Positions 1-17,025 of a stretch of DNA of 64,000 bases are shown one piece after another (the stretch's first letter is position 1; each line of letters begins with the position of its first letter). The stretch spans positions 1-64,000 of the IMG/VR virus record IMGVR_UViG_3300050821_017570; one strand, written 5' to 3'. The DNA comes from a virus. The position numbers and the translations under genes were made by a program. Below the pieces are notes generated by a model. The model worked only from the letters and a program-made list of their open reading frames with translations, had not been told where the DNA came from and searched no databases.

Positions 1-113
1 TCATACGTATTCCAGGCACCCTTTACGGCATTCACAGCCTTGGGCTCATACGTATTCCAAGCACCCTTGACCGCATTGACCGCCTTCGGCTCATACGTGT
101 TCCAGGCACCCTT
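1..113. repeat. 45-bp coding tandem repeat, about 2.5 copies visible
   Basis: Units start at 1, 46 and 91 with tcatacgtRttccaRgcaccc; they encode KGAWNTYEPKAVNAV; no unique spacers. Confidence 0.9.
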
Positions 114-212
114 GGCCTTGTCCATCAGCGATGGGGCTGGTGCGGGTACGGCCGGTTGAACCGGGGCCTCGGCTGGTGCGGTAGGATCTGCGGAGGTCTT
201 ACTAATGGACAT
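1..212 (-). CDS. Hypothetical protein, runs off the left window edge; carries a 15-aa tandem repeat
   Basis: Manual translation from ATG at 212: MSISKTSADPTAPAEAPVQPAVPAPAPSLMDKAKGAWNTYEPKAVNAVKGAWNTYEPKAVNAVKGAWNTY; AGAGGG upstream; not in the ORF track because it is truncated. Confidence 0.8.
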   Translation of the reverse strand, partial: MSISKTSADPTAPAEAPVQPAVPAPAPSLMDKAKGAWNTYEPKAVNAVKGAWNTYEPKAVNAVKGAWNTY

Positions 213-242
213 GATGCCCTCTATCCGCTTACCTTACCTCGA

Positions 243-2081
243 CTACTGGGGTTGACCACCCTGCTGGCCTTGACCCAAAACCTGCTGCTGACCCTGGGAG
301 GCCGCCTGTTGGCGCAGCTTGTCCATCTTCGCAGTCACCATGCTGTGGAGGTCCTGGTTAGACTCACGGATCTGGCGAAGCTGTTGCTTACGGTCATAGT
401 CCGGCATCGAGACAAGCTGTTGGGCAATCTGGTCAGCCTGATCGGCCATCGCCTGGATGGTCGTCGGCTGCTGACCACCCGACCCCATACCTGGGATGCC
501 GCCCATCCCGCCGGCCGCCGCTGCGGCGTTTGGCTGCCCAGCCTGCTGTTGCTGGGACAGGAGAGCCTGACTACCAGGAGCCTGGTTAAGCTGTTGGGCC
601 GCACCCATTTCCTGCTCTTCCTGCTGCTGCTCGTTGGCCTTCTCCTGCTCCTTCGCAACCGTCTTCTGGTGCTGGAACACCTTCTTGACCTCTTCCTCGG
701 CGTTGATGCCGATGGCCGCGAGAGCCGTCTGGGGCGAGATCTGATTGGCACTCATGAGCTGCATGAGGATCTGCTTGCGCCCCTCATCGTACGAGACGGT
801 TGTCTTCTGCATGATCGCAGTGGTCTCGTCGATATCGAAGTTACGGGCGCAGACCTTAATCATCCAGGCGAGGATTTGGTTGTAGAGGGCTGGGACGGAC
901 TGCCAGCACGACTCAAACAGCTGAAGCGCCATAGGGGCGGCCTGCACCGATAGTGTCATGCTATGGTATTCGAGCGGGATACCGAGGCTGTTCAGGTATT
1001 CCTGATGACGGAACTTGAGCTTGTCTGGCGGAATCAGGGTCGCACCCTCACCGCCTGCAAACTGGTAGGTCAATGGATAGGGGGCGGTGTGATAGGTCGC
1101 GGGGTCGGCCCGGTGCTGGGCGACGATACGACGAACCGCACGAACAAACCGATCCATACCCTGGGTCTGCACGGGGTCCTGGACCTGACCAGGCGCCGGA
1201 GTCGGTGACAGGATTCGCATACCGAGCGTGTAATCCAAACAGATCGCTTGGTCGGCCCGATTGATCGTCTGCATCAGCCATGCCATGCGGAAATTGCTGA
1301 TACTGCGTGGGACACCCCAACCGCGGGTATCCATGCCGGTGATGATAGGCTCGTCCATGTGAAGGACGCACTCGTCATCGAGTTTCACGTCCCCATCGTA
1401 AGCGACCGCTTCGAGGACCGACATCGGCGTGTCCTCGATATGAATGGGTGCACCACGACGAATATCTTCGCGCACATAGTTCGGGATACGCCAGTAGATC
1501 TCTTTACGCTTCGAGTGACGGTTGAACCCGATATCGATTTCAAACGGGCTGTAACGCTCTAACCGAACCTTCGAGATATCCGGGTCACGACGATCCTTGC
1601 AGATATAGTCGCGTGCATCCTTGCACATCGGGCAACCGCCACCGGTGCGCTTCCAGTGCACGCCTTCGGTATCGAACCCAATACCATAACGGACCCGTCG
1701 AATCGGCTGCTCGTACCCACATTGACGACAAATCAAAAAGCGCTGAAACGGGATGTAGAGCGAAACAATCAGGTTGCCATAGCAGAGGAACTCATCAGCA
1801 CACGACTGTAGTTCTCGCCGGTAATTCAGATGCTTGTTGAACAGATCCTTGAACTGGGACTCTTCGTCTGGCTCAAGATCTGGAAACTGAATCGAGGTGA
1901 TGAAGTGGCTGCCAACCCGCTGGAAAGCTGTCCTAAAGTTACCGTCTGTTAACCAGAGATATTGGGCCCACCACAGGATGAGGGTGTGGGAGGTCGGCAT
2001 CGCCATCGTGGCGTAGTCCAGCCAGGGGAGTTGTGCCTCCCGCATAGCCGGCATGGTCGACCTAAAGCTGTCTAGTCCCAT
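243..2081 (-). CDS. Putative phage portal protein
   Basis: 612 aa; WGVPRSISNFR...DQAICLDYTLGMRILSP segment and Q-rich C-terminus resemble large-phage portals as I recall them; internal CxxC...CPxC; head-region context. Confidence 0.55.
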   Translation of the reverse strand: MGLDSFRSTMPAMREAQLPWLDYATMAMPTSHTLILWWAQYLWLTDGNFRTAFQRVGSHFITSIQFPDLEPDEESQFKDLFNKHLNYRRELQSCADEFLCYGNLIVSLYIPFQRFLICRQCGYEQPIRRVRYGIGFDTEGVHWKRTGGGCPMCKDARDYICKDRRDPDISKVRLERYSPFEIDIGFNRHSKRKEIYWRIPNYVREDIRRGAPIHIEDTPMSVLEAVAYDGDVKLDDECVLHMDEPIITGMDTRGWGVPRSISNFRMAWLMQTINRADQAICLDYTLGMRILSPTPAPGQVQDPVQTQGMDRFVRAVRRIVAQHRADPATYHTAPYPLTYQFAGGEGATLIPPDKLKFRHQEYLNSLGIPLEYHSMTLSVQAAPMALQLFESCWQSVPALYNQILAWMIKVCARNFDIDETTAIMQKTTVSYDEGRKQILMQLMSANQISPQTALAAIGINAEEEVKKVFQHQKTVAKEQEKANEQQQEEQEMGAAQQLNQAPGSQALLSQQQQAGQPNAAAAAGGMGGIPGMGSGGQQPTTIQAMADQADQIAQQLVSMPDYDRKQQLRQIRESNQDLHSMVTAKMDKLRQQAASQGQQQVLGQGQQGGQPQ

Positions 2082-3054: not shown

Positions 3055-3849
3055 TCAATCGCCCGTGGAACCTAATACGGTTTCGTGCTGAAGGATACGT
3101 CGGTAGCTCGCGCGTGCCTTACCAGCGGGTTCGGACTCAATCGCTTCGTAGGGTTCAAACGCATCCAACACGTCATCTGGTACGGATGAGTTGGTTAGTA
3201 TGAGGTTACGAGGCGACGTTTGCGGTAGATGGTCTTGGCAATCCCAGACTCGGGTCAGGTCCGCACCAGCGCGCCGAACGGTCGATTTGACGTTAAGAAA
3301 CTCATACGATTTACGCCGCCCAATATAGTTGAGCCAAACCACATCACACAGTCGGACCAATTGGCTCAACTCCTCCCGCTCCACCGACCAGGCTTCACGC
3401 CCCTGGTAGGCGTCTCCGAACCCGACATCCCAATGGGATTCGGCGGTCTCAGATTCGGTCAGATAGTCGCTACTCGATTTACAGACAATACGTAGACGAC
3501 CTTCGTCTTCAAACTTCCCCACGAGGTGAAAGTGCTTTCGGCACATATCGATCACCACCGGGTCGATCTCCACCACCGTAAGATCAAATCCGGGAAAACA
3601 GCTCAGCAGGGCGATCGGGCCTGCACCTGACCCCAATCCGAGCATGACACCAGAACCGTTAGGCTTATCGGCCCCAGCCATCAGCCAGCCATTCATGTAG
3701 AGGGATTCCGCTACCGGGCCTGGCTTACCGGTCTGGTCGAGAAACGACCCACCCTGAACCTGATGGTCGATAGCGAGACATCTGGCTTCCGGTTTATCAA
3801 ACACCCAGACTGAGCCAAACATCCCTGGTCGGGATTCCAATAGCTTCAC
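3055..3849 (-). CDS. Spermidine synthase-like / class I SAM-dependent methyltransferase
   Basis: Gly-rich motif VMLGLGSGAG, acidic VVEIDPVVI, WDVGFGDAY. Confidence 0.7.
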   Translation of the reverse strand: MKLLESRPGMFGSVWVFDKPEARCLAIDHQVQGGSFLDQTGKPGPVAESLYMNGWLMAGADKPNGSGVMLGLGSGAGPIALLSCFPGFDLTVVEIDPVVIDMCRKHFHLVGKFEDEGRLRIVCKSSSDYLTESETAESHWDVGFGDAYQGREAWSVEREELSQLVRLCDVVWLNYIGRRKSYEFLNVKSTVRRAGADLTRVWDCQDHLPQTSPRNLILTNSSVPDDVLDAFEPYEAIESEPAGKARASYRRILQHETVLGSTGD

Positions 3850-6800
3850 TTGGTTGGTTTCTTGTGGTAGTGCTTGTACAGAAGGTATCCAAGTAACCCT
3901 ACTGCGCCAGCCCCCAATACGGCCCCACCACCGATCAGATTGTTACGTATGTGCTGGCCGGTCTGGATAGCCGTATTGTAGAGACCCGCACTGGTGTTCT
4001 GCGCGTTAAGCCCCACGACTGAATTCATCAGCTGTGACTGCCCATACGTGGTGGGGTTATGCTTGGAAAGCCACGGATCCAAATGTTTCAGCACATTGGT
4101 CTGCTGGTCTGGTGACCATGTGTGGTAGTCGCCCCTCAGCCCCTCAGATGCACCTACAGCTTCTGCCGCGCCACGCAATTGCGTGATAAATCGGTCAGGA
4201 TTGAAGTGACTGACATTCTCAGGTTTCACTCCAGCGGCCTGTAGATTTGCCAGCATTTTTGCGAACGTTTTTACGTTCTTACCCAACAGGTCAGGATTCG
4301 AGTCACTACCAGTGTAGCCGGGCTGAGCGTTAAACGCCACCATATCAGGATGGATCACATCATCTGCACCAAACTGAGCCGATGCTCCGGGTTTGGTCTT
4401 TATGGCTGTGAAGATCTGGGTTCGTGGATAGTCGACATTTGGGTCACCACTCGGATAGGCGTACTCTTTCATGCGCTGGAGGTAGCCAGCGAGCGGTCCA
4501 TTAGCGAATTCATGGTAATGCTGAGCCGAACCCGCATTCCAACGAGCCTGTGGCGGAACACCTGGAATCTCTCGAATCCAGTGCATGGCCTTCTCCATCG
4601 GAACACCCAACGGGTGAATCCGCATGGCCTTGCTGCCCTCAATAGCATAACCCTTGGCCGGTTCATCCAAGCCCACCTCGCCAGTATTCCACTTTCTGGC
4701 TTGCTCGGAAAACTCATTCAGCACCGCATTATCTTTCGGTGTTAGAAATACTTCACCTGCACCGACGGCCCCAAGTCCGGTCAGCCCGAGTGCTCCAGCC
4801 CCCATAAGGGCTCGACGCTCACCTTTATCCCACGTATTTTTCTTTTTCGCAGGCGCACCCATTTGGGCCGCGACCTTGACAAGCGAACTGATTTTCGGCA
4901 TACCCAACGGCTCGGTCGTAGGTTGAACTGGTTGCGCCGCCACTGATACGACCGGTTGCGCCTTACGCTTGCGCTTGAGATAGTTGAGGATCACACGGGC
5001 CCGGGCGCGATCGAGATCTCGATAGCCAGCGTTCTGTTTCAGCCCCATCGATCCATACATGTTCTTGAGCACTTCCTCAGGAGGTGCCCAAACCCCGCCC
5101 TCAAATAGCGGAGCTGCCGCTGGATCCACGTCACCCACATTGAGTGTGACGTCATACCCGTGGACGCCTGGTTCGTCCGCCCCATTGGGTGGAAGATACC
5201 GAAGGGTCGGTTCATACGGAGCCTTGGCTCCGACCCCACTGGTGGGAAACCGATACCGACGATTCTGATCGGGTGCCACGTAGACCCTATTCTCAGGGTC
5301 AAACATCACGTACTCAGACCGCGGCGCCGTGGTGACACGATCAGCTTGTTTGGTCTGACCGGGCAGGCCAAGCATCTGTTGGACCGTTTCAACCGTATGG
5401 GCTGGGTCGCTGAAGAAGTGCTGGGCCTCACAGAACGGGATACCGGCAGCATCGGCCGCCCCACCATCATGATCCAGGTTGTCACCCACCATGACGCATT
5501 TGGCCGGATCGAGTCCAAACCGCTTCATCACATGGACAATCATGGTTGGGGCAGGCTTCAGAACATCCGGATGTGGTGCCGGAGTATAGCAGATGTCGTC
5601 GAGTGTTCCGCCCATCAGACCAATCGTCTCACGTTGCAGGTCACCCAACAGGTCTGGCGTCAGACTCGAATGATCGTCTCGATCACCACGGCAGGTGTGG
5701 TTGGTCACCCCGATGATCCGACAGCCCATCTGCTTGAGCGGATCGAGCGTTTCGATCCTATTCGGCATGATGAACTGATCGCCGAGCGTGTCGTACCGGC
5801 CGTTGCGCCACTGCCGTACCGTTGAATCCATATCCAACAGGATAGCCGGAAAGTCACCCTGATCGTCTGGCTCTTCGGCCGGCTTCATAGCCAGCATAGG
5901 GCAAGCTTCTTCAGCTGGAGAACCGGCCGGGTCACCATCGTCGACGGCCGTCTTGGCTAACTGCGGATTGTTGCCACCATGAGCGTTTGGTGACGGCACC
6001 TGTGGTGCATGTTCATACCCGTGGAGGGCCGCCTCGTGATCGACCGGCGTTACAGCGGTTTGACGTTTTTCTGGTTTGACCGTCTTGGCGATATCGCCGG
6101 GCTGGACCTCATCACCGGCACCGGAATTGTCGCCGGCTTTGGGGTTTTCACCGTCCTGGATTGGTCCAGTTGCGGGTCCTTTGAGGGACGAGATGACACC
6201 GGCCCAATGGGTCGCGGCAAGCTTTTCGCCCGCGAGGGCCAGTTTGACCGCTGTGGTGAATCCATTGTTGGCTGCTTTCTCTGCTTCCTCAATCGCCTGA
6301 AGACGTGTCTGGTTAGGCTTCTCGGCCCACTTGTTGTCTTGGTCGCTCATACAGCCACGTAGAAAGCTCTTGGCTTCCTTGAACGGAATGGTCGCGAACG
6401 GCTCGTTATCCGCATGCTCGGTACCGAGAGAACCGCCATCTAGAGCCAGGAAGAAGTAGGTACGCTCACCATCAAACCCATCGACCAGCTTCTTATCTTC
6501 TGGCCATATCGCTTCCACCACACCCATCGGTTTGATATGGAGGAGCTTACGATCGGCCTCTTCGATAGATTCACGGTATGCGGCAAACTCAGGCTCTTCG
6601 CCATCATCGATCCCACCGCCGGGCATCAATAGGTAGCCGGGCTTCCGAAACCCGATGATCCCGTCCTTACTGTATATCACTACTTCGGAACGACTGCGGA
6701 GGTGCGGGTGGTCGCTGTTGGACTGGTCGGAATCTGGGGTCTCGTCGGTGTCCTGCTCGGCGGCCTTTACGACCCCGTGCCTGCCGCCCGAGTAGCGGGT

Positions 6801-8033
6801 CGGCACTCCGGCCAGCCCTCTGGTGAGAATCCGGTTGGAGGCCTTGCGGGGGTTGCCACCGGTTGGTTGAGGGTTTCGTGGTGCGTTGGTTTCTGGCCAC
6901 CCAACCGGCTCCTCAGTTTTGTTAGCGGATGTCTTCATCTGGTGGTTAGCGTGCTGTCTCAGCTTACCTTCGAACGCGTTAGCGGCATCATGGGCGTCGT
7001 CGTAACTAACCCCACTTCTCATGAGTCCGCGTTCAGTTAGCTCGTGCGAGAGAATGAAGGCTCGATCCAGCTCCGGCACCTCTGTGTCGATCCAGATCTC
7101 ATTCTCGGGGATCCAGTCGTAGACCAGGTGGTGACCGCCACCGATGTAATCGGTATGGCCATCGTTACGGACCTGTACCCCATCGACCAACCGGACGTCA
7201 GTACCGTCGGGTAGTGTGACCCAGGGGGTCGTCGTGATACTTGCCGTCTTCTGCACCCACGCCCGTTTAGCCAACTGCTGCTTCAGTCGGTTACGATACT
7301 GGTTCCGATACAGGAGGGCACTCAGGACACCGATCGCACCCCCAACCCCTAGGCCAATGAGCCCCATCTTGCCGCCTGAACGCAGCTGGGATGGACTCAT
7401 CTGGATACCCAGCTGGTTGGTTGGCAGGGGAGCTTCACCTGTGACGTGCGGGGCGTTCATCACGCCAGTGAGCGAACCTGTCGTCCCACCCAGAAGGGCT
7501 CCCAGCTCACCCCAGCGGACCGGCGTGTCTTTCACCTGCTCGTACTGTTGGGCTGCCTGCTGAGTCTCTGGATCTGCAAGACGCCGTTGGATCCCTGCGG
7601 GTGCGGCGCGCAGGATACGTTTCGCACGCATCAATCGTTTGGGGTCCAGCACCGTGTCGGCCAGCTCTAGTGATGCACCTGTACCCAGCCCGATACCACC
7701 ACCGATCGCTAGCCCTTTGAGAGCAGACCCTTCGGCTGCCCGAGGATCATTCCCAGCCGCATGCCCAAGTAGCCCAGCCTTTGCACCGATACCAAACCCA
7801 CCCACCGCGGCACTCGGGAGGGCTCGCTGAAGCACACGCTCCCAAAGTGGGTGCTGTCGACGATCCTCAACCTGCTTGACCGTCTCTAACGCATCAGCAA
7901 CCGATGAGACCTGCTCGGGTGTCGGTTGGGCAGGTGTGGTTACCGGCGAAGGGGTCGATGACGGCAACACATCACCAATGCGCTGAAGCGCACTCGTGAT
8001 GGGTGTGATGTGATGAGTGAGCGATTCACTCAT
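3846..8033 (-). CDS. Large multidomain protein: glycine-zipper membrane segments, HE-motif metal-binding domain, Nudix hydrolase, HAD-IIIA phosphatase
   Basis: Nudix box GGGIDDGEEPEFAAYRESIEEA; HAD motifs LLDMDST, KPAPTM, VMVGDNLDHD; ILSHELTER...DAHDAAN; GxxxG-rich hydrophobic helices near both ends. Confidence 0.85.
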   Translation of the reverse strand: MSESLTHHITPITSALQRIGDVLPSSTPSPVTTPAQPTPEQVSSVADALETVKQVEDRRQHPLWERVLQRALPSAAVGGFGIGAKAGLLGHAAGNDPRAAEGSALKGLAIGGGIGLGTGASLELADTVLDPKRLMRAKRILRAAPAGIQRRLADPETQQAAQQYEQVKDTPVRWGELGALLGGTTGSLTGVMNAPHVTGEAPLPTNQLGIQMSPSQLRSGGKMGLIGLGVGGAIGVLSALLYRNQYRNRLKQQLAKRAWVQKTASITTTPWVTLPDGTDVRLVDGVQVRNDGHTDYIGGGHHLVYDWIPENEIWIDTEVPELDRAFILSHELTERGLMRSGVSYDDAHDAANAFEGKLRQHANHQMKTSANKTEEPVGWPETNAPRNPQPTGGNPRKASNRILTRGLAGVPTRYSGGRHGVVKAAEQDTDETPDSDQSNSDHPHLRSRSEVVIYSKDGIIGFRKPGYLLMPGGGIDDGEEPEFAAYRESIEEADRKLLHIKPMGVVEAIWPEDKKLVDGFDGERTYFFLALDGGSLGTEHADNEPFATIPFKEAKSFLRGCMSDQDNKWAEKPNQTRLQAIEEAEKAANNGFTTAVKLALAGEKLAATHWAGVISSLKGPATGPIQDGENPKAGDNSGAGDEVQPGDIAKTVKPEKRQTAVTPVDHEAALHGYEHAPQVPSPNAHGGNNPQLAKTAVDDGDPAGSPAEEACPMLAMKPAEEPDDQGDFPAILLDMDSTVRQWRNGRYDTLGDQFIMPNRIETLDPLKQMGCRIIGVTNHTCRGDRDDHSSLTPDLLGDLQRETIGLMGGTLDDICYTPAPHPDVLKPAPTMIVHVMKRFGLDPAKCVMVGDNLDHDGGAADAAGIPFCEAQHFFSDPAHTVETVQQMLGLPGQTKQADRVTTAPRSEYVMFDPENRVYVAPDQNRRYRFPTSGVGAKAPYEPTLRYLPPNGADEPGVHGYDVTLNVGDVDPAAAPLFEGGVWAPPEEVLKNMYGSMGLKQNAGYRDLDRARARVILNYLKRKRKAQPVVSVAAQPVQPTTEPLGMPKISSLVKVAAQMGAPAKKKNTWDKGERRALMGAGALGLTGLGAVGAGEVFLTPKDNAVLNEFSEQARKWNTGEVGLDEPAKGYAIEGSKAMRIHPLGVPMEKAMHWIREIPGVPPQARWNAGSAQHYHEFANGPLAGYLQRMKEYAYPSGDPNVDYPRTQIFTAIKTKPGASAQFGADDVIHPDMVAFNAQPGYTGSDSNPDLLGKNVKTFAKMLANLQAAGVKPENVSHFNPDRFITQLRGAAEAVGASEGLRGDYHTWSPDQQTNVLKHLDPWLSKHNPTTYGQSQLMNSVVGLNAQNTSAGLYNTAIQTGQHIRNNLIGGGAVLGAGAVGLLGYLLYKHYHKKPTK

Positions 8034-8036
8034 CGG

Positions 8037-8534
8037 TTAGACCAGTCCGTGGAGCCGTCCCCACAGCTTGGCGAGTCGGACATCCAACATCGCATTGGCG
8101 CTCATTTTGTTCATCCGATGCGCGATCTGCTGTTCCGCGAGGTTTATAGCCCCAGGCGTTTCCTGCGCAAGCTGTTGAGCTTTCTGAGCCGTCAGTGCCA
8201 TGGTGGTACCCTTGGGCGGTGCAGCCGCATTGACGGGTGCCGGTGCCTGAGGGGCTGGCTTCTGAGGAGCCGCCGGTTGAGGTGCAGCTTTGGCAGGTGC
8301 CGCAGGGGTCGCTACCAGCTTTGGTACCGGCGGTGCCCCAGGGATCATCTGCTGCTGCTGTACCTGCACGGCCAGCTTGGCGAGCGCGGCCTGGACCTTT
8401 GGGCCTAACTCTTCAGCCTTCTTGACGTGCTCTGGAAGCTTTTTGCCCTTAGGCGTGTGGGCGGCCCAACGCTTCGCCATAGCTGGTTCGTTTGCGAACA
8501 TCCAGCCACGTTGAGCTTTACTTTTAAACGGCAT
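8037..8534 (-). CDS. Hypothetical protein with MPFKSKAQRxWMFAN N-terminal motif
   Basis: 165 aa; I recall this N-terminal motif from uncharacterised phage proteins; Pro/Ala-rich linker. Confidence 0.75.
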   Translation of the reverse strand: MPFKSKAQRGWMFANEPAMAKRWAAHTPKGKKLPEHVKKAEELGPKVQAALAKLAVQVQQQQMIPGAPPVPKLVATPAAPAKAAPQPAAPQKPAPQAPAPVNAAAPPKGTTMALTAQKAQQLAQETPGAINLAEQQIAHRMNKMSANAMLDVRLAKLWGRLHGLV

Positions 8535-8605
8535 ACCTAATAGTTCCTTCAGCGCTCACTACCGATTCTCCCAACCAGCGGAGGCCCAACAAGCCTCTTA
8601 CCCGA

Positions 8606-11353
8606 CTAGACGGTAATCCAGCTACCGCCGGTATACACGTAGAGTGCCATGCTGGTGGTATCATAGACCAACGGAACCGCAGCCGGCCATGCCTCAGGTG
8701 TACCCGTCGGGGTACCGGCGCAGGTCGGGATGTAGAGGAACCCATTGGTCGCGGAGGTCGATAGTGCGGTACCGGAACTCACCACGACTGAACCAGCTGC
8801 GGTGAGGCTGGCGGTACCAGTGGTGATCGTCACGTTGGTACCAGCCGCGGCAGGCGCGTCGAGTGCCAGTACGATCGAAAAGTCTAGATTCGAACCAGTG
8901 CCACAGCTGACCGTAGGGGCGCCGATATGAACGGCATTGAATTGTGACGCTCCTGAAAGCGCGGCAAAGACTTGTGTCGGTTGTACAATATCGATTGCGC
9001 TGCCACCGGCGGTAGCGCCGCTGCCGATACCACCACTACCATAGAAGCGAATAATGTCAGCGGATGCGCCGGAATCATAGATTGAGAAAAAGACATTTCC
9101 GCCAGACATGCCAACCGCCGCAGTGGCATTGATGACTAGGCCGAAGCGGTCTGTCGACACCGATTGGAATGTAAAGCCAGCATAGCCAACAATACCGGCC
9201 CCAACGGTAGAGCCGAACGTCATCAGATCACGAGAATTGCTCGTTGTGAGTGCAACGGTCGAACCGTTGTAGGTAAAGTTACCGGACCCTGTGATGGTTG
9301 CGGTGCCGGACCCGTATGCGACCTGGTTGGCAGTAATGGATCCACCAATCCCACCAACCGTACTCCAGCTGCCGTTGTAGAAGTAGATCCCACCACTGGA
9401 GCTGTTGTAGACGACCGGAATACACGATCCCATCGTCACAGGCGTACCGGTTGGGACGCCGGCGCATGATGGGATATAGAGGAACCCAGCTGTGGTAGAG
9501 GTTGATAAGGCGGCGCTGCCAATCGCAACCGACCCACCGCTTGGGTTCAGAAGCAGCGATACAGGCCCGTTGTTGGCTTGGATCGATTGGATCGCATTGG
9601 CGGTTAGGCTGGTGTCGGTGACAAAATTGGTGAAGAGCCCAAACGTACCAGTGTTACCGATGTTGACCGCAACACTGCCGTCGTTGGCAAACAGATGACT
9701 CCCGCCATCGACCTCCAACGTACCCTGTGAGATCAGCGCTGAAGTGGCCGTGATGTCGGGGGCCTGGAATAGTGCACCCGCCGTAACGGTACCCCCACCT
9801 GGATTCAACTGCAGGAGTGTGTCACCAACACTCGCCTGGATCGCCTGAATCGACATCGCACCAGCACCGGTGTTGGTCACAATATTCAGGAAGAAGTTTG
9901 TCCCCGAAGTGCTGCCGATGTTGACAGCCGTACTATTGTTGGCGAACAGGTTGGACCCACCTGTTGTAACCAGACTCGGGATCGTAACTGTGCTGCTACC
10001 TGAGTTGTAGGTAAAGCTCGATGACCCCGCGATCGTATTGGCGGTAACGTCACCGTAGGCGACCTGACCCGAAGTGATCGACCCACCAATCCCACCACCC
10101 CCGCCGGTTGCGGCGATCGTCAGGAGGGTACCAGAGTCGGTGATCGTGATACCGGAACCGGAATTGATGGTCTTAAAGACCAAAGTTGACGAAGTCGAAT
10201 TGACTGAGTCAAACACCGCGTATGTGCCACCACCCTCGTTCGAACCACCCGTTACGGTACCGGAACCGCTCGCGGTCGACGCGATCGTGATGGCGGTGCC
10301 GGACGGGGTCAACGTGATGTTGGAGCCAGCAATCAGTGACTTGAAGAAGAGTGTCGAAGCGGTCGAGTTGGTGGCGTCGAAAACCGCCGAACCCGAACCT
10401 TCACTCGATCCGCCCGTTACGGTACCGGCCCCAAGTGGCCCAACGGTAGTTCCGCCAGCATGGTAGAACAATCCACTGCTGGTCATCCATTCATCGCCAT
10501 TATTGGGCGACGTGGGGGCCGTACCCTGAGGGAGGTTCAGTCCTGCCCCACCGGTAGTCGAGGCGGCCGTCTGCAGGAGCCCCGTGAGGGTCTCACCACC
10601 GGTAAGGCTGAGGAGGCTTCCGTTGTAGGTGAGGCCGGAACTTCCGGCGATCGTGTTGGTACCAGAGCCGACCGCCACCTGATTGGTCGCGATCGTCCCA
10701 CCAATCGTCCCACCACCACCGCTCCCACCAATCAGCGCGATACTGATGTAGTTGGCATACTGGTACGTATTGAGGGCGATGGCCCCACCGGTGCCGGTCT
10801 GAATGATCTGAACGTTGAGCGTATCACCCATCGTCATCTGGATGATGTCACCACCCCCGCCCTCAACCCCGATGAAAGCAGCCGCCTGAACATTCCCGCC
10901 GTTGGGGCTCGAATAGACCGATCCGTTCACATAGATGTAGAGGGACCAGTAGGTTGAGACTGACCACGTGGCGCCCGCAAATAGAAAGCTGGCGTTGACC
11001 TGGTAGTAACCAGTAGCCGGCGCGGTGAAGGTCCAACTGGCACCCGTGGTGACCGTACCGTGTGGATCATACACCATGGTGTCGTAATTGATGACCGTAT
11101 TGGCATTGTAGGGGATCGACTGCCCTAGCGTCGCCACATACCTCGCCACCTCAGTCCCTGGGGCGACCGGTGGGGCTACCCAGGTTGGCTGAGACGTCGA
11201 ACCCGTCGATGCCAGCAGGTATCCAGATGTGCCAAACCCAACCCCAGTGCCCAAGCCATTCACATCGGTCGTCACGACCGAATAGGCGGGACCTTTGATT
11301 TTGCCCAAAAGGGCCTGGTAGAGATTCGAGCTGATACCGCTGGTAATACCCAT
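8606..11353 (-). CDS. Tail fibre-like protein with N-terminal C1q-like beta sandwich
   Basis: 915 aa, G/S/T-rich; TVINYDTMVYD...FTAPATGYYQVNASF; repeated IGGSITxxQVAYG modules; two GFLYIP modules. Confidence 0.75.
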   Translation of the reverse strand: MGITSGISSNLYQALLGKIKGPAYSVVTTDVNGLGTGVGFGTSGYLLASTGSTSQPTWVAPPVAPGTEVARYVATLGQSIPYNANTVINYDTMVYDPHGTVTTGASWTFTAPATGYYQVNASFLFAGATWSVSTYWSLYIYVNGSVYSSPNGGNVQAAAFIGVEGGGGDIIQMTMGDTLNVQIIQTGTGGAIALNTYQYANYISIALIGGSGGGGTIGGTIATNQVAVGSGTNTIAGSSGLTYNGSLLSLTGGETLTGLLQTAASTTGGAGLNLPQGTAPTSPNNGDEWMTSSGLFYHAGGTTVGPLGAGTVTGGSSEGSGSAVFDATNSTASTLFFKSLIAGSNITLTPSGTAITIASTASGSGTVTGGSNEGGGTYAVFDSVNSTSSTLVFKTINSGSGITITDSGTLLTIAATGGGGGIGGSITSGQVAYGDVTANTIAGSSSFTYNSGSSTVTIPSLVTTGGSNLFANNSTAVNIGSTSGTNFFLNIVTNTGAGAMSIQAIQASVGDTLLQLNPGGGTVTAGALFQAPDITATSALISQGTLEVDGGSHLFANDGSVAVNIGNTGTFGLFTNFVTDTSLTANAIQSIQANNGPVSLLLNPSGGSVAIGSAALSTSTTAGFLYIPSCAGVPTGTPVTMGSCIPVVYNSSSGGIYFYNGSWSTVGGIGGSITANQVAYGSGTATITGSGNFTYNGSTVALTTSNSRDLMTFGSTVGAGIVGYAGFTFQSVSTDRFGLVINATAAVGMSGGNVFFSIYDSGASADIIRFYGSGGIGSGATAGGSAIDIVQPTQVFAALSGASQFNAVHIGAPTVSCGTGSNLDFSIVLALDAPAAAGTNVTITTGTASLTAAGSVVVSSGTALSTSATNGFLYIPTCAGTPTGTPEAWPAAVPLVYDTTSMALYVYTGGSWITV

Positions 11354-11365
11354 ATCTGGCCAGTC

Positions 11366-11722
11366 TTAGAACAGGCCGGCAACAGAGCCGGTGGCCGTAA
11401 CACCTGACCCATTGGCGAGCACGTATAACATATCTCCGCCCTGGAAGGTTGTTTTGTCATCAAGAGACTGACGCTCACCTGCCAATAGTGGTTGGTTGGC
11501 CACAATCAGATGCTGTGGTACATCACTTGAAAGGATCGGAACCGTACCGCCATTGGGCACCCGCCAGAGCCACCAGTTGACGGTCGATCCACTGGTATTC
11601 AGCATGAGAAACTGAAACGCAGTTGATGATGGAGTTGTGCCACTCGACGGAGCCGTATACATAAGGGTTGCGGTTGATGCCGTCAGGACCTGACCTGGGA
11701 TACGAAATAGTGTACTACTCAT
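11366..11722 (-). CDS. Small tail-associated structural protein
   Basis: 118-aa beta-rich ORF between fibre genes. Confidence 0.6.
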   Translation of the reverse strand: MSSTLFRIPGQVLTASTATLMYTAPSSGTTPSSTAFQFLMLNTSGSTVNWWLWRVPNGGTVPILSSDVPQHLIVANQPLLAGERQSLDDKTTFQGGDMLYVLANGSGVTATGSVAGLF

Positions 11723-12276
11723 ATAGCAGCCTTAATAGCATGAACTTCAGTGGCAGGCACAGGGAATTGTTTATTGTGTAGTGCTTCGATAAAAAGTCTG
11801 AACTGATCAATTTCTAAATTAGATTTGAATGAGTTCACAACCGCGCAACATAGTACACAATTAGTTTTAAGGTAGCCACGCTCGGGATACATTCGATCGA
11901 CTGAGGTTGCAAACGGATCTCCACGATGAGTTAGAAACACCATGGGGACACCCGAATAGTGGCACAGCCCTTGCTGCGTATCCCATCGTTGTTTAAACCA
12001 ATCTTCGTCGAGATCAAATAAAATTTGTCCCTTTTTAGCACGCCCTTCTATATTTTTTATCTTACTTCGATAAGGGTTAGATCTGTACGCTTTTATAGCA
12101 CGATCAGCCGCACAACGATGACAAACGTAACTACAAGTCACGATCATCTCACTTGCCAAAAATCCCCTAGTACATACTGAGCATATAAACTGTCGTCCAT
12201 CACATAGACGCCGACTATCGTCTAGTTCTTGTTTCAGCTTATGCCGGTGAATGACCATTGAACGTGGTGTTGGCAT
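11719..12276 (-). mobile_element. Free-standing HNH/His-Cys-type homing endonuclease gene
   Basis: QQGLCHYSG...SVDRMYPERGYLKTNCVLCCAVVNSFK; N-terminal Cys clusters; visibly AT-richer than flanks; inserted between structural genes. Confidence 0.7.
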
Positions 12277-12279
12277 TTG

Positions 12280-13626
12280 TTACGAGCCAAATACTAGGGC
12301 GGCTACTATTGGATCAATAGTGCTCGAACCAGACGCCGTGATGGTGATGTCGACACTATTGTTGCCCGGGTTATCAACCGCCGTTGCTCCACCACCGATG
12401 AAGTTCAGGATCGGACGTGTGGCCACCGGTGTACCCGCTACCTCAACCTCAACACCAATCCAACTGAGATAGAGATCTGCCATTAGGTTGCCCCCACCCG
12501 TTAGATAGGACTGAGGGCTGGAGAGCGTGAAGATACTGCGGGTCAGCGGAACAAACGTCCCTGAGAGATCGAACCACCCGTTGGAGGTATTGCCAGGGTT
12601 GCGGGCCAACACCTGGTTGGCTGCCGTGGCGCCGCTGATGTCGTTCGGCTGGATCGCCCGGAAGGTTGGGGCCCCACTGCCGGAGCCGATCGTGGGACCG
12701 ATGAAGGCAAACCCAGCCCCAACGCTCGATGCGTTGGTTCCCGTCCCACCCTGGGCCAGCGAGATGGTCCCGGTGGCGATCTGGCTGGCATCCAGCGAAA
12801 CCGGATCACTCCCCGAGATCCCATGGGTCGAAGCATGCGCGGATGGAGGAAAGCTAGTCGGCACGCTCGATAGGTGTGACCAAGGTACCGTAGCGGAAAA
12901 TGCCGGAACCCCAGCGGTCCAGTAGAGATAGCCGGCCCCAGCCGATGCATTGATACCCAACCCACCAACCGCAGCCGAAACCGTACCGGTCAGAATGTCG
13001 GAACCATCGATGGCTCGGAAGCTAGGTACGCCGGACGAACCCAGTGGGGCCAGAAACCCGTAGTGCTGGGTCTGAGATCCATTGATGTACCCGTACTGGG
13101 TAGCATTGAGATGGTAGTACTGGGCGGTCGTTCCGCCCTGGAGCGAACCCAGCAGGTTGTGCGTGATGATGGTCGAGACATCGACCCAAACGGTACCGTT
13201 GTAGAGGAGGATGATTTGGGTATCACGGACGAAGCTAACGTAGCCGATTGTTGGCGTTACGAAGCTCCAGGACGTGCCGTTATCGAGCGCCAGTGTCCCA
13301 GCAGGCTGTGAACCCCAATCGGGCCCTGTGGGGCTCGCTGGAAGGATATAGCGGGCACCAGCGACGTGTGAGCCAGGCTCGGCTGCCGTTGTGGCCGACA
13401 ACACCGGAAGCTGCCAGGTGAGCCCACCTGCGTAGCTGGCTACGAATGCCTGAGTAGTTAGGTCAGCAGGGTTGGACCCATCGACGCCAGCCTGAGCGGC
13501 CACAAATGGGTTAGCCCCACTGGTGAGGACCACTGTGGAAGGCAATGTGGAGATATCGAAGGCCCCGGCCCCAATTTGGGCCATATCGGAGCCATTCCAT
13601 CCAATCGGGGTACCGGGACCGGTCAT
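12280..13626 (-). CDS. Tail fibre-like protein containing a DUF2793-like domain
   Basis: GARYILPASPTGPDWGSQ...WSFVTPTIGYVSFVRD...YNGTVW; G/S/T-rich; C-terminal IDPIVAALVFGS. Confidence 0.7.
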   Translation of the reverse strand: MTGPGTPIGWNGSDMAQIGAGAFDISTLPSTVVLTSGANPFVAAQAGVDGSNPADLTTQAFVASYAGGLTWQLPVLSATTAAEPGSHVAGARYILPASPTGPDWGSQPAGTLALDNGTSWSFVTPTIGYVSFVRDTQIILLYNGTVWVDVSTIITHNLLGSLQGGTTAQYYHLNATQYGYINGSQTQHYGFLAPLGSSGVPSFRAIDGSDILTGTVSAAVGGLGINASAGAGYLYWTAGVPAFSATVPWSHLSSVPTSFPPSAHASTHGISGSDPVSLDASQIATGTISLAQGGTGTNASSVGAGFAFIGPTIGSGSGAPTFRAIQPNDISGATAANQVLARNPGNTSNGWFDLSGTFVPLTRSIFTLSSPQSYLTGGGNLMADLYLSWIGVEVEVAGTPVATRPILNFIGGGATAVDNPGNNSVDITITASGSSTIDPIVAALVFGS

Positions 13627-14888: not shown

Positions 14889-15812
14889 CTAGATCGGTAG
14901 ACTTAACTCTTGACGCTTAGCACAGACCGCAGCATAGGCTTCTTCAGCAGTAGCGAATCCACTACAGGTGAACTTCTTACCACTGGTAACGAAAGCCCAG
15001 TAAAACGACTTCTTATTCCTCGCCTGAAAGACACGGTCAAACCCGAGGCCATTGGGTCGTCCAAGCGCCGTACGGCTAGTTATACCGGCTACTTCGACAA
15101 TTTTATGCTCCCGCCGCGGCTTCTGCCATTCACCATCCCACTTATCGTTCTTAGACGCATTGTCTTTCTGCCACATCGGTTGTAGGTTTGTGTAGTGTAC
15201 CGCTACAGCTAACTGAGCTTGATCAGTTAAGTCAAACGACGCCAACGGCCGCTTGTGGTCAATGTGCCAACCATAATAGGTATAGTTGTCCCATGACATA
15301 CCTTCTGTCCACAGCGACTCAATATAAGCCATCAATTCTTCAGGTGTGCAACCTAAATGAGTTTTCAAGACTGTACCGCTGTAACCGGTCTTCAGTACTC
15401 TATAGATACGATTTCTTATATTAAGTTTCACTCGTAAATCTGGTTCAGTAGCATACCGCTCTTTAGCGCGTGCTGCTTTCTTGTCTATACGAGCTGGTGT
15501 CCTATCGTAGCCGGTTTGTTGCGCCCACGTTCTGTTAGCCGCGTTGTGCTTTTCACGTGCCTCAGGGCTGAGGTTTTTATGATACTCACGCATAGCTGCC
15601 ATAAGCCTATCGCGGTTTGCTTCGTAGTGCTTACGTGAGGCTTCAGCGTCGCGTGCCTTAACAGCTGGATCATTGTGGCGTAGAGCAGTTCGGCGAGCAA
15701 CTTCCAGTGCCTTATGCTCTTCAATCTCTTCTGGCGTTGCTGTTCCGTTATTCCGCTTTCGTCGCAACACCAGCCGCCGCTCGCAGCTCACATCTACATG
15801 CTCAGTCGACAT
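14889..15812 (-). mobile_element. HNH homing endonuclease with C-terminal AP2-like DNA-binding region (ORF track start 15920; likely ATG 15812)
   Basis: WDNYTYYGWHIDHKRPLASF...TNLQPMWQKDNASKND; C-terminal GFATAEEAYAAVCAKR; start overlaps the upstream stop. Confidence 0.8.
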
Positions 15813-17025
15813 AGAGTCGACCACACATCGTTTTGCCTCTTTCGGAATCGATCCAGAAGCATGCCTGCTGTGGCGGCTCAGCAGATGCCCCAATGCTAAG
15901 TGCAAAAGCATTAAAGCCAATCAATGAGCCATTAACAATAAAGTCACCACCATCGATCAGCTGATGAAAATGTCCCATTACGCTTAGATCGGCCGGATTA
16001 GGGTTGCTAGCGTTCCATGCAGCTAACCGCTTACGTATTGGTATGGTGATACCGCCAACACCAGAACCGTAGGCGATCTGGTCTCCATGAAGCCAACGCA
16101 CCCTCGTGTTGTATAAGTCAGTGTAAAGATGTGCACCCTCAGCGATCCTAAAGTCCAGCCGCCGTTCAGCACGCCACTCACGCTGTAGTGTCTTATACAT
16201 GAGATAAGACAGCGAGTGTTCCATCATTGTGTTCTGACGTGGCTTTTTGACCATTCTATCGTGGTTACCTGAACACATTGGGAGCACCAAGTGGTCCAAA
16301 TCGCCGTGACTTAGAATATATTCAATACCAGCGCTGATAAGTTCTTGGGCAAACAACACAGCTTTTGTAGGCCCAAGATGGTTAGTCTCTGCCGCATCCT
16401 CCCAAATTCCATTGGTTAAAACGTCCCCCAGAATAGCGAGCACAGCAGTATCGCAAGTTCCGATATGCCTCCAGTTATTCAACATAAACACGTAGGACTG
16501 GAAAACCTTCTTCATTCGGGCTTCAGCGATTTCCAAATTAAATTCGTTGTCAAACCCAGGAATTGAATCTCTAGTAACAGACTCCTCAACATGTAAGTCA
16601 GACAATACACCACAGAAAATTCCCTGGCCTCCGGTGGTGATTGGCTCATCGATACGAATGGTACGAGACCCTTGACCAGCCTCGATACCTCGAAGCAGTT
16701 CAAGCTGTGCCTGGAGTTTCTGGTTCTCCTCTTCAGAGACCTTGAGTTTCTCTGACACATCGTTCTTATCCGCTACAGCCTTAGCAGCCTTACGCTCAGC
16801 AGCCAGCACTACCTTAGGCTCTGGCTTCGGTGTGGCGGCGACCGGTTCACGATCGTGAACCGCCGCCGGCTTCGACATTGCCACCATACCCTTTTGGAGG
16901 GCACGGGCATACCGGTCAGCGAGGGTCTTACGAGGAATTCCAGAAGCAGCCGCGGCGGCCGTAGGGGTACCGTGAATGGTGATGAGATCGAGAGCGTCCT
17001 GACAAACCTGATCGTGATCAGACAT
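15802..17025 (-). CDS. Calcineurin-like metallophosphoesterase with N-terminal HTH (ORF track start 17088; likely ATG 17025)
   Basis: Motifs SDLHVEE, LGDVL, GNHD, LHGD, GHFH; N-terminal AAAASGIPRKTLADR. Confidence 0.8.
   Translation of the reverse strand: MSDHDQVCQDALDLITIHGTPTAAAAASGIPRKTLADRYARALQKGMVAMSKPAAVHDREPVAATPKPEPKVVLAAERKAAKAVADKNDVSEKLKVSEEENQKLQAQLELLRGIEAGQGSRTIRIDEPITTGGQGIFCGVLSDLHVEESVTRDSIPGFDNEFNLEIAEARMKKVFQSYVFMLNNWRHIGTCDTAVLAILGDVLTNGIWEDAAETNHLGPTKAVLFAQELISAGIEYILSHGDLDHLVLPMCSGNHDRMVKKPRQNTMMEHSLSYLMYKTLQREWRAERRLDFRIAEGAHLYTDLYNTRVRWLHGDQIAYGSGVGGITIPIRKRLAAWNASNPNPADLSVMGHFHQLIDGGDFIVNGSLIGFNAFALSIGASAEPPQQACFWIDSERGKTMCGRLYVD

Follow-up and report, generated by a model that had tools for sequence, protein, structure and literature searches.

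The window analysed, a 64,000 nt stretch of DNA, belongs to the 187-kb record of an uncultured soil phage and carries a gene for a 1395-aa modular protein (P0001), with a 165-aa gene upstream and, downstream, a 264-aa gene and a 612-aa portal-protein homologue (Table 1). A sequence-only reading of this stretch had proposed that the 1395-aa protein is a virion polyprotein whose modules are separated by Lys-x-Ala (K-x-A) motifs, at which a prohead protease might release them. The order polyprotein gene, 264-aa gene, portal homologue is kept in 8 IMG/VR loci; matches to the 264-aa gene lie directly after the polyprotein gene in L005–L011, and the portal homologue is found at 49–62% identity in 8/8 related loci with the order unchanged. 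The 264-aa protein gave only a sub-threshold Spermine_synth hit. The 612-aa protein has a homologue in Salmonella phage Arash, Gp204 (E = 2e-41), which is annotated as portal and was detected in Arash virions (PMC10585845); the portal identity of the 612-aa protein follows from this homology to Gp204 as annotated. The portal Pfam families PF07230 and PF04860 had no match anywhere in the genome, and neither the 612-aa sequence nor its profile found a sequence match in the PDB. The large proteins that follow the portal in relatives are not enriched in K-x-A overall, and each has one or two copies at aa 37–60.

Table 1. Features of the polyprotein locus and the prohead protease (window positions, unless marked as genome positions)
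Feature	Position (nt)	Strand	Basis and context
612-aa portal-protein homologue	243..2081	-	2–4 kb downstream of the polyprotein gene
Downstream 264-aa gene	3055..3849	-	4-nt overlap with the polyprotein gene; accompanies it in most relatives
1395-aa modular protein gene (P0001)	3846..8033	-	ORF and translation
C-terminal extension, aa 1056–1395, two hydrophobic glycine-rich segments	3849..4868	-	only in this phage
K1053-V-A1055, joint before the C-terminal extension	4869..4877	-	ends the low-pLDDT segment aa 1029–1053
Conserved C-terminal domain, aa 899–1028	4950..5339	-	universal in the family
Site 3, K895-Q-A-D898, start of the conserved C-terminal domain	5340..5351	-	low-pLDDT segment aa 893–899
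HAD phosphatase module, aa 727–892, capless IIIA type (predicted)	5358..5855	-	Pfam, motifs, fold
Disordered linker, aa 600–724, with lineage-specific K604-L-A, K694-T-A and K717-P-A	5862..6236	-	model
Site 2, K597-L-A599, end of the Nudix module	6237..6245	-	edge of the low-pLDDT segment aa 598–606
Nudix hydrolase module, aa 445–596	6246..6701	-	Pfam and fold matches
Site 1, K423-A-A425, before the Nudix module	6759..6767	-	alignment of homologues
Linear motif P-T-G-G-N-P-x-K-A-S-N ..., aa 383–420, in a disordered linker	6774..6887	-	alignment A3
Small beta/alpha domain, aa 270–366, conserved H-E-x-x-E ... A-H motif	6936..7226	-	AlphaFold model
Joint after the N-terminal module, K256-R-A and K262-T-A	7242..7268	-	low-pLDDT segment aa 256–266
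N-terminal module, aa 1–255, glycine-zipper and hydrophobic segments	7269..8033	-	kept in P0002–P0010
Upstream 165-aa gene, four K-x-A	8037..8534	-	PHROG 1375 match; homologue in the same place in L004
441-aa prohead protease	genome 185719–187044		fold match; adjoins the scaffold-like and capsid genes

The block of protease, scaffold and capsid genes is not adjacent to the polyprotein gene; related genomes have this block on the same strand, some 20 kb further downstream. An arrangement in which the contig ends adjoin, placing the portal directly before the protease, was considered and rejected: terminal overlap is absent, about 18 kb and 12 genes separate the two ends in the closest relative, none of those 12 matches this contig, and the record is classed in IMG/VR as linear and 95% complete. 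A DNA search of INPHARED gave no close match to the phage, and the polyprotein as query found there one weak match, confined to the HAD domain, in an uncultured phage. No homologue of the polyprotein family was detected in cultured relatives, so gene context and the shared motif are the only grounds for placing it in virions.

The AlphaFold model shows modules that fold independently, strung together by flexible K-x-A linkers in the order glycine-zipper membrane module, H-E-x-x-E domain, Nudix, capless HAD, C-terminal domain and second membrane module. Zippers and hydrophobic segments occupy aa 71–245, 1075–1100 and 1364–1388. The N-terminal module has G-x3-G-x3-G at aa 79, 107, 111, 178, 182 and 227, with its strongest hydrophobic window at aa 219–245; the other two ranges are the hydrophobic windows of the C-terminal extension. 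No match to this extension was found in relatives, and P0012 has a different one, likewise with glycine-rich, zipper-like stretches. In whole-model fold searches, matches to Nudix and HAD took up the lists, and Pfam at E values up to 5 gave nothing usable for the H-E-x-x-E domain, the C-terminal domain or either membrane module.

The H-E-x-x-E domain is modelled at pLDDT 80–94 over most of its length and is conserved in P0002 and P0006–P0010. Its look-alikes among phage proteins are small and stand alone, and a weak lead (0.79) points to Peptidase_M78; it had no match among Pfam peptidase families and is absent from many homologues. It may be a zincin-like peptidase. The G-G-N-P linear motif has pLDDT < 50 and is present in 14/18 homologues; N383, G393, P395, N400 and G417 are invariant in alignment A3. 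The Nudix module is matched by Pfam NUDIX at aa 463–554 (27.9 bits, cut-off 21.1), and its Nudix box (aa 473–494) fits G-x5-E-x7-R-E-U-x-E-E-x-G-U except for Asp in place of the final Gly; fold matches at Z 12–13 include NDP-sugar hydrolase, NudC and ADP-ribose pyrophosphatase, and the top Foldseek hit is RppH. Beyond it, pLDDT falls below 50 at aa 598–606 and 612–724, and aa 600–724 is variable or absent in homologues.

The next module has a Pfam HAD match at aa 753–868, with Hydrolase, Hydrolase_like and HAD_2 all above cut-off, and the HAD motifs D-M-D-S-T (D-x-D-x-T), V-T-N, K826 and G-D-N-L-D-H-D (G-D-x3-D). Its best fold matches are mll2559, GmhB and HisB-N (Z 15.8–15.2), followed by the PNKP 3′-phosphatases of mammals (Z 14.1) and T4 (T4 Pnkp, Z 12.7). 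Motifs and modelled fold place it in the capless IIIA group (GmhB, HisB-N, PNKP 3′-phosphatase), and it is predicted to be a phosphatase. The domain at aa 899–1028 is the family's most conserved block and is folded in the model; its look-alikes are stand-alone phage proteins of about 130 aa, with a weak Nudix lead.

The K-x-A positions given in the sequence-only reading all agreed with the translated gene, which has 13 (aa 256, 262, 423, 552, 568, 586, 597, 604, 694, 717, 826, 895 and 1053), and the KKAEE and KLAV attributed to the next gene are present in its 165-aa product. Against 7.4 expected from shuffles, 13 copies give p = 0.03, and count enrichment within the polyprotein is weak by itself. 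Position is more informative. The model places nine of the 13 in segments with pLDDT < 50, and in these linkers 9 of the 18 Lys belong to K-x-A against 2.4 expected (p = 2e-4); in the folded domains the figure is 4 of 23 Lys, with 1.8 expected. As had been cautioned, some copies do fall inside domains (552, 568, 586 and 826). The first three are not conserved, and the Lys at 826 is the catalytic one of HAD motif III.

A functionless by-product of Ala- and Lys-rich helices and linkers would be in keeping with the modest p value in the polyprotein, with a motif that was chosen after the sequence had been read, and with linkers that are richer in Ala (13% vs 8%). Such a chance origin is very hard to credit in view of the wider pattern. 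When 1600 spaced residue pairs were scanned genome-wide, K-x-A was the top multi-protein outlier, the sole pair with two proteins below p = 1e-3, and its genome total is 224 against 155 expected. In seven motif-rich proteins, Ala stands at +2 from Lys at 2.65 times expectation and at +3 at 1.46 times, while other offsets give 0.8–1.1. Lys is favoured over Arg: R-x-A shows no enrichment, and in a 540-aa protein the motif takes in 12/17 Lys and 0/21 Arg. Moreover, K and A are invariant around a hypervariable x in alignments of 18–40 homologues, and the pattern is repeated in independent genomes.

Conservation of the polyprotein sites was followed in 25–26 homologues, 18 of which were aligned. 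Sites 1, 2 and 3 (423, 597 and 895), all at domain edges, are kept in every homologue that covers the region, with K and A invariant and x hypervariable. Site 1 lies 8–25 aa upstream of the Nudix start in 18/18 and in further short forms, with x = A, S, D, Q, L, V, K, R or T. At site 2, K and A are invariant in 18/18 (x = L, I, Q or R, and Y in a further short form), and at site 3 so are K, A and D (x = Q, T, K or V, and L in further short forms). Of all invariant columns among the 18 aligned homologues, K597/A599 and K895/A897/D898 have the least conserved surroundings. The joint after the N-terminal module is also conserved, as K-T-A or another K-x-A in most full-length homologues, whereas 604, 694, 717 and 1053 occur only in this phage; most homologues end near K1053.

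If the motifs are joints, modules might be expected to change between them, and the homologues do exchange or lose modules exactly between conserved K-x-A sites. Sites 2 and 3 enclose a HAD phosphatase, a C39 peptidase (P0006–P0010), a Pterin_4a (pterin dehydratase) plus HAD, or no module; in P0289 they are separated by 5 residues, and in P0287 they are fused into a single K-L-A-D. The N-terminal modules vary too: L010 has LigD_N and a DNA ligase, and DUF5661 is also found among relatives. Short homologues (L005–L008) begin with a leader of about 90–107 aa, whose K-x-A end abuts the first enzyme and which in L005–L007 includes a conserved G-G-N-P motif.

The peptidase-like modules raise the alternative that an embedded peptidase (H-E-x-x-E here, C39 in relatives) processes the chain and that the prohead protease is uninvolved; metallopeptidase autoprocessing has been predicted for phage polyvalent proteins (Iyer et al. 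2017, PMC5512222), and the weak Peptidase_M78 lead and the C39 modules point the same way. We regard this as improbable, since P0003–P0005, P0011, P0012 and L005–L009 have neither H-E-x-x-E nor C39 and yet keep the three sites intact, the H-E-x-x-E domain matches no peptidase family, and the capsid, scaffold and protease proteins share the motif without having such a domain.

The expected concentration of K-x-A in head-assembly proteins was seen across the genome. The motif-rich proteins include the prohead protease, a scaffold-like protein (16 K-x-A in 478 aa) and a 149-aa head-module protein, and in four related contigs the counterparts of these three are rich in the motif as well (p = 1e-4 to 1e-2). 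The K-x-A-rich 540-aa and 252-aa proteins had no PHROGs match, nor did the former have a Pfam match. The pattern extends to cultured phages: in Salmonella phage Arash it is shown by the major capsid protein (K27-E-A29), Gp220, Gp223 and Gp225, and in Bacillus phage G by gp19. We found no paper linking K-X-A, KXA or Lys-X-Ala to a prohead or maturation protease.

The prohead protease that was to be looked for is the 441-aa protein, which has the T4 gp21/herpesvirus assemblin fold. Its AF2 model (pLDDT 82.7) aligned by VIA-align with T4 gp21 (5jbl) at Z 10.2 (rmsd 3.1, 129 aligned residues) and with the VZV and HCMV proteases at Z 9.8 and 7.3, the next unrelated entry being at Z 5.4, and this search settles the fold. 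A PDB sequence search gave no match, Foldseek returned only weak herpesvirus-protease matches, and there was a weak hit to the PHROG 'head maturation protease'. The protein is homologous to phage G gp19, a named head maturation protease (PMC12484599), and its clade, to which the cultured phages Arash and G belong, exceeds 2500 homologues at the 50% cluster level. By their spacing, H101, S152 and D204 are catalytic candidates.

K35-x-A of the protease is kept in 35/38 homologues (13 different x) and K393-x-A in 29/38 (12 different x); both lie in low-pLDDT loops of the model, and in both the motif is mostly followed by A or S. The major capsid protein, whose profile matches phage G gp27 (E = 9e-7), likewise has the site that was sought, K25-x-A27, kept in 40/40 homologues. 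As read from alignments and models, K-x-A is conserved in predicted flexible loops of the protease and at the capsid-protein N-terminus, and is dense in the scaffold-like protein.

The invariant Lys could instead be modified, as the acceptor of a phage ubiquitin-like conjugation system, and not cut. The SUMO acceptor consensus, psi-K-x-E, is of similar form, and an E1 was confirmed in the genome at 109669–110220. This reading is slightly less credible still than self-processing: no ThiF/E1 match exists in a relative whose genome is complete (G002; 216 kb, direct terminal repeats, CheckV 100%), yet its polyprotein retains the sites and its protease and scaffold are rich in K-x-A, phage G gp19 carries the motif too, and the terminal positions in capsid protein and protease fit maturation cleavage.

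A more serious alternative, which we still consider unlikely, is that the polyprotein stays intact, as a membrane-anchored multidomain enzyme or an uncut ejection protein, and that K-x-A is a docking or recognition motif that might bind scaffold, protease or capsid interior. Conservation of the motif demonstrates selection and not cleavage, and soluble enzymes between N- and C-terminal membrane segments make a plausible single-chain topology. Against this alternative, the motif stands just inside the capsid N-terminus and flanks the protease fold, positions like those where known prohead proteases process the capsid protein and their own chains (PMC5694885); its density in the scaffold-like protein resembles scaffold degradation sites; and both copies are kept where sites 2 and 3 enclose no module.

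Among known systems, the closest in these respects are the head proteases of T4 (gp21, MEROPS S77) and of phiKZ, 201phi2-1 and SPN3US (gp175/gp245, S80). Common to both are the gp21 fold of the protease, a three-residue motif at the capsid N-terminus, in the scaffold, at the protease ends and in the candidate cargo, multiple sites in propeptides and linkers, and RNA polymerase and other enzymes as encoded virion proteins, detected as such in Arash. The T4 and phiKZ-type enzymes cut after Glu (L/I-x-E, S/A/G-x-E or A-x-E; PMC5694885), whereas the conserved motif here, known from sequence alone, is Lys-x-Ala with no acidic residue; and most cuts there trim N-terminal propeptides, whereas the sites here would split one chain into several enzymes.

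Herpesvirus assemblin resembles the 441-aa protein in fold, and the maturation and release sites are (V/L/I)-x-A followed by S, so that both motifs have Ala third and often a small residue next; the first position is Lys here and aliphatic there. To our knowledge, the substrates of assemblin comprise the protease-scaffold precursor only, and no enzyme polyproteins. In T4, the internal proteins (IPI–III and Alt) carry an N-terminal capsid-targeting sequence that gp21 removes. The leader of L005–L008, ending in K-x-A before the first enzyme, is comparable; it is about 10 times longer than the T4 sequence, is internal in the 1395-aa protein, and its targeting role is putative.

The polyvalent proteins of phages and conjugative elements (PMC5512222) are likewise large, combine unrelated enzyme domains in a swappable architecture and are encoded near virion genes. 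Packaging and delivery together with the DNA have been predicted for them, and their release was proposed to occur through embedded zincin-like or assemblin-like peptidase domains (PMC5512222). The present family has the two or more unrelated enzyme domains and the variable architecture that define them (Nudix and HAD here; C39, Pterin_4a, LigD_N with ligase, and DUF5661 in relatives), and differs in that its joints bear the motif of a prohead protease encoded by another gene and that a canonical H-E-x-x-H domain is absent. Judged from alignments and models, the polyprotein has three features expected of a gp21 or assemblin substrate: a protease of that fold is encoded, the motif is shared with members of established substrate classes (capsid N-terminus, scaffold and the protease itself), and it lies in linkers predicted to be accessible.

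We favour, as moderately probable, the reading that the polyprotein is head cargo cut at K-x-A by the prohead protease. It would be co-assembled into the prohead and cut there, most likely just after Ala, by analogy with the T4 (x-E) and herpesvirus (x-A) sites. About six products would result, namely two membrane-active pieces together with the Nudix, HAD, H-E-x-x-E and C-terminal domains, which would remain in the capsid and probably be ejected along with the DNA. More speculatively, the P-T-G-G-N-P-x-K-A-S-N stretch, the C-terminal domain, or both, may serve as packaging handle, and the enzyme payloads may act early in infection on nucleotides or nucleic-acid ends; candidates are the Nudix and the PNKP-like 3′-phosphatase here, and LigD phosphoesterase with ligase, or a C39-type peptidase, in relatives. 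Gene context also favours head cargo: the Arash virion proteome has many enzymes, including the RNA polymerase subunits whose genes lie in the same region (PMC10585845). Against head cargo, the strongly hydrophobic segments would equally suit a membrane protein of the infected cell. The broader proposal, that a widespread clade of gp21/assemblin-fold proteases switched from a Glu code to a Lys-x-Ala code and uses it as a plug-and-play cargo joint, is offered tentatively, as plausible rather than probable.

If K-x-A is the cut site, it would be a new specificity for a well-studied protease class, and head-proteome processing could be read from sequence for hundreds of uncultured phages of about 180–215 kb. 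The cultured relatives with K-x-A, Arash and phage G, make cleavage testable, and mass-spectrometry data for Arash virions exist. Under the broader proposal, an enzyme placed between two K-x-A linkers, beside the core of Nudix and C-terminal domain and the G-G-N-P handle, would be packaged, freed and injected, making this a general, evolvable cargo-delivery cassette with phosphatase, peptidase, ligase and membrane-inserting modules as payloads. If K-x-A is indeed cut, the polyprotein would reveal the enzymes that such phages bring into their hosts, and that payloads are exchanged between fixed joints, with a bearing on early host takeover and counter-defence.

The record, from an uncultured phage, is 187,139 bp long with 56.5% G+C, and is classed as linear by IMG/VR and as 95% complete by CheckV; the window is its first 64 kb. 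The polyprotein is modular, with Nudix and HAD phosphatase domains and with glycine zippers and hydrophobic segments at both ends. Catalytic motifs are retained in both enzymes, with HAD motifs I–IV all present and a Nudix box that lacks only its last Gly. Fold comparison places the HAD module in the capless group of GmhB, HisB-N and PNKP 3′-phosphatase which, together with the LigD phosphoesterase and ligase of a relative, hints, speculatively, at nucleic-acid ends or nucleotides as the target of the two enzymes. No Pfam family is matched by a small domain whose conserved signature is H-E-x-x-E-x3-M ... Y-x2-A-H-x2-A-N; its look-alikes are stand-alone phage proteins of 76–134 aa, and it may hold a zincin-like metal site. 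A linear motif, P-T-G-G-N-P-x-K-A-S-N ... (E/D)-R-(Y/F)-S-x-G, lies in a disordered linker. Of 18 homologues, 14 conserve it, in each case upstream of the K-x-A that precedes Nudix. This stretch and the C-terminal domain, which is universal in the family, are the leading candidates for a packaging handle.

Features of the phage record and of one relative, with K-x-A counts for individual proteins
Feature	Position	Strand	Size (aa)	K-x-A found	K-x-A expected	Remark
Tandem repeat	window 1-130					period ~45 nt
Portal homologue	window 243-2081	minus	612			
264-aa gene	window 3055-3849		264			
Polyprotein ORF	window 3846-8033	minus	1395			
H-E-x-x-E domain	window 6936-7226; aa 270-366					
P-T-G-G-N-P-x-K-A-S-N motif	window 6774-6887; aa 383-420					
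Nudix domain	aa 463-554					Pfam, above cut-off
HAD phosphatase	aa 753-868					Pfam, above cut-off
EndoVII/HNH-type nuclease genes	window 11719-12276, 14889-15920, 17467-18042; genome 181303-182055					
540-aa protein	genome 147104-148726	plus	540	12 (of 17 Lys)	2.3	outside window
Prohead protease candidate	genome 185719-187044		441	11 (of 25 Lys)	2.2	
Scaffold-like protein			478	16	8.5	Ala/Gly/Pro-rich
Protein adjoining scaffold-like gene			149	7	3.2	
807-aa protein			807	8	3.0	
252-aa protein			252	6	1.6	
RNA polymerase beta/beta′-like genes of L017 (genome G001)	5462-9868; 10696-12663		1468; 655			

K-x-A occurs 13 times in the polyprotein, every position named in the sequence-only reading included, and the KKAEE and KLAV motifs it saw in the next gene are present in the neighbouring 165-aa gene. 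The observation itself is real; the count alone makes a weak case for enrichment (13 versus 7.4 expected, p = 0.03). An AlphaFold model of aa 240–1060, built with an alignment of 18 homologues as input, shows well-folded domains separated by segments with pLDDT < 50, and 9 of the 13 motifs fall inside these segments. The excess is found in the linkers, where 9 of 18 lysines are in K-x-A (2.4 expected, p = 2e-4), as against 4 of 23 in the folded domains (1.8 expected, p = 0.11). The caveat that some motifs also occur within domains holds for these four; three of them lack conservation, and the remaining one coincides with the catalytic Lys of HAD motif III.

The comparison took in 25 homologues, drawn from 11 metagenome-collection proteins, 8 loci in IMG/VR, and 8 shorter forms of which two proved to be one protein. 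Every homologue covering the region carries three K-x-A sites: site 1 (K423-A-A425 in the polyprotein), 8–25 residues upstream of the Nudix start; site 2 (K597-L-A599), at the end of the Nudix module; and site 3 (K895-Q-A-D898), a K-x-A-D that opens the conserved C-terminal domain. K and A never vary at the three sites, x is represented by four to nine different residues per site, and no other invariant columns of the alignment lie in surroundings as poorly conserved as those of the K-x-A sites. Between sites 2 and 3 there is a HAD phosphatase, a C39-type cysteine peptidase, a pterin dehydratase plus HAD, an unknown domain, or nothing; in the module-less forms the two sites are five residues apart or fused into a single K-L-A-D. 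The part before site 1 is a glycine-zipper module, in some forms joined by the H-E-x-x-E domain; elsewhere it is a LigD phosphoesterase plus DNA ligase, or a leader of ~100 residues alone. Homologues therefore swap modules at K-x-A motifs, one of the outcomes that the sequence-only reading had proposed to look for. An alternative reading of these sites is that the polyprotein stays uncut and K-x-A is a docking motif, to which we assign a small but appreciable probability.

The motif was also assessed genome-wide, by scanning 1600 spaced residue pairs in those 192 of the 287 selected ORFs whose predicted proteins reach 100 aa. K-x-A was the only one of the 1600 pairs with two proteins below p = 1e-3, the remaining outlier pairs being internal repeats within single proteins, and its genome total was 224 versus 155 expected. 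Seven proteins are enriched, among them the polyprotein (13 versus 7.3 expected in this count), the prohead protease candidate, the scaffold-like protein and its 149-aa neighbour. Across the seven, Ala occurs at 2.65x the expected frequency at +2 from Lys, at 1.46x at +3, and at 0.8–1.1x elsewhere between -5 and +5; R-x-A, taken as an Arg control, is not enriched anywhere. The specificity for +2 and the lack of R-x-A enrichment argue against a mere effect of Ala-rich helices. Chance or composition as the source of K-x-A is ruled against by position, conservation, and the Arg and offset controls, and is very improbable.

Two of the enriched proteins have no recognised family, the 252-aa protein in PHROGs and the 540-aa protein in Pfam or PHROGs. 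The latter, most of which is covered by the related locus L002:1-1587, has none of its 21 Arg in R-x-A, and its K-x-A part is followed by a Pro/Thr/Ser/Gly-rich tail of ~200 residues. Its gene is on the strand opposite to most genes.

The prohead protease that the proposal called for is, by its fold, the 441-aa protein, for which clustering at 50% gives 2530 relatives. Residues 48–225 (model pLDDT 82.7) match T4 gp21 (Z 10.2, rmsd 3.1, 129 residues) and then the protease of varicella-zoster virus (Z 9.8), with Z 5.4 for the top unrelated entry. The protein is homologous to Bacillus phage G gp19, listed in PMC12484599 as a head maturation protease. Two of its motifs are widely kept, K35-x-A in 35 of 38 homologues (13 different x) and K393-x-A in 29 of 38 (12 different x). 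The position following K-x-A is mostly Ala or Ser. Both sites coincide with low-confidence model loops that flank the fold on either side. Self-trimming at such positions is known for prohead proteases, as with SPN3US gp245, which cuts its own C-terminus (PMC5694885). Many protease homologues of ~800–880 aa (P0136-P0138, P0143, P0153 and others) match the 441-aa protein in two stretches, split near residue 155–162 and close to the invariant Ser152, a pattern that points to an intein or some other large insert in the gene. Invariant cysteine clusters in the protease (Cys162, 165, 176) and the portal homologue (Cys118, 121, 150, 153) look like inserted zinc ribbons.

The profile of a 313-aa capsid candidate matches the major capsid protein of phage G (6wkk, E = 9e-7), and the K-x-A site sought there is K25-x-A27, which 40 of 40 homologues keep, x being any of seven residues. 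K-x-A richness recurs in the protease, scaffold and 149-aa homologue of four related contigs (p = 1e-4 to 1e-2), and the relatives' large post-portal proteins have one or two K-x-A each at residues 37–60, behind a conserved N-terminus. The pattern extends to two cultured phages. In Salmonella phage Arash the capsid protein Gp226 carries K27-E-A29, the protease homologue Gp222 carries K30-Q-A32, and Gp220, Gp223 and Gp225 are K-x-A-rich. Phage G gp19 has 8 K-x-A versus 2.5 expected, and gp20 and gp21 have one each at residues 10–12. The motif is common to capsid, scaffold and protease. Self-processing of the polyprotein by its embedded H-E-x-x-E or C39 domain, on the model of PMC5512222, is unlikely, since capsid and scaffold proteins share the motif and many homologues that have neither domain still keep the K-x-A sites. 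The phage's own genome has an E1/E2/JAB/Ubl cassette, which would fit the K-x-A lysine acting as a ubiquitin-like acceptor, but a complete 216-kb relative without E1 retains the motif and this explanation is disfavoured.

Related loci share the gene order polyprotein, 264-aa gene, variable genes and 612-aa protein. The annotated portal of Arash, detected in Arash virions (PMC10585845), is matched by the 612-aa protein at E = 2e-41. The polyprotein gene and the 264-aa gene overlap by 4 nt, and in 7 of 8 related loci the 264-aa gene directly follows; its product has only a sub-threshold Spermine_synth hit (class I methyltransferase-like) and is without K-x-A. Adjoining contig ends, with the protease right after the portal, were considered and rejected, as the closest relative (L017) has ~18 kb and 12 genes between the two. 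This interval has no match in the present contig, which is probably broken between the portal homologue and the protease, at window 1-260 and the genome end (187,045-187,139). The tandem repeat at the window start is likely an assembly break. In L017 the interval includes RNA polymerase beta/beta′-like genes, and Arash has the same order of portal, RNA polymerase, protease, scaffold and capsid. The Arash polymerase subunits rank with the most abundant proteins of its particles, which also contain many other enzymes (PMC10585845), and phages of this clade probably package their own multisubunit RNA polymerase. The gene order and the Arash virion proteins place the polyprotein at the upstream edge of the head and packaged-protein region. 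The EndoVII/HNH-type genes lie dispersed between genes for structure and for replication and likely encode free-standing homing endonucleases.

Cleavage at K-x-A is supported by every computational test available, short of proof. The analysis shows the modular build of the polyprotein, where the motif lies and how well it is conserved, the fold of the protease, and the motif's presence in capsid, scaffold and protease alike; packaging, cleavage, the exact bond and ejection are inferred. The polyprotein probably enters the prohead, where the gp21-like protease would cut it at K-x-A into a membrane module from each end and, between them, the H-E-x-x-E domain along with its linker, Nudix, HAD and the C-terminal domain. 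Such a system would resemble prohead-protease processing in T4 and the phiKZ group, whose protease fold is matched here. Herpesvirus assemblin sites are x-Ala, which Lys-x-Ala resembles. By contrast, every motif described for prohead proteases of the T4/phiKZ group ends in Glu (PMC5694885). A literature search found no paper linking K-x-A to head maturation. The polyprotein qualifies as a polyvalent protein in the sense of PMC5512222, with the difference that its joints would carry the code of a separately encoded protease.
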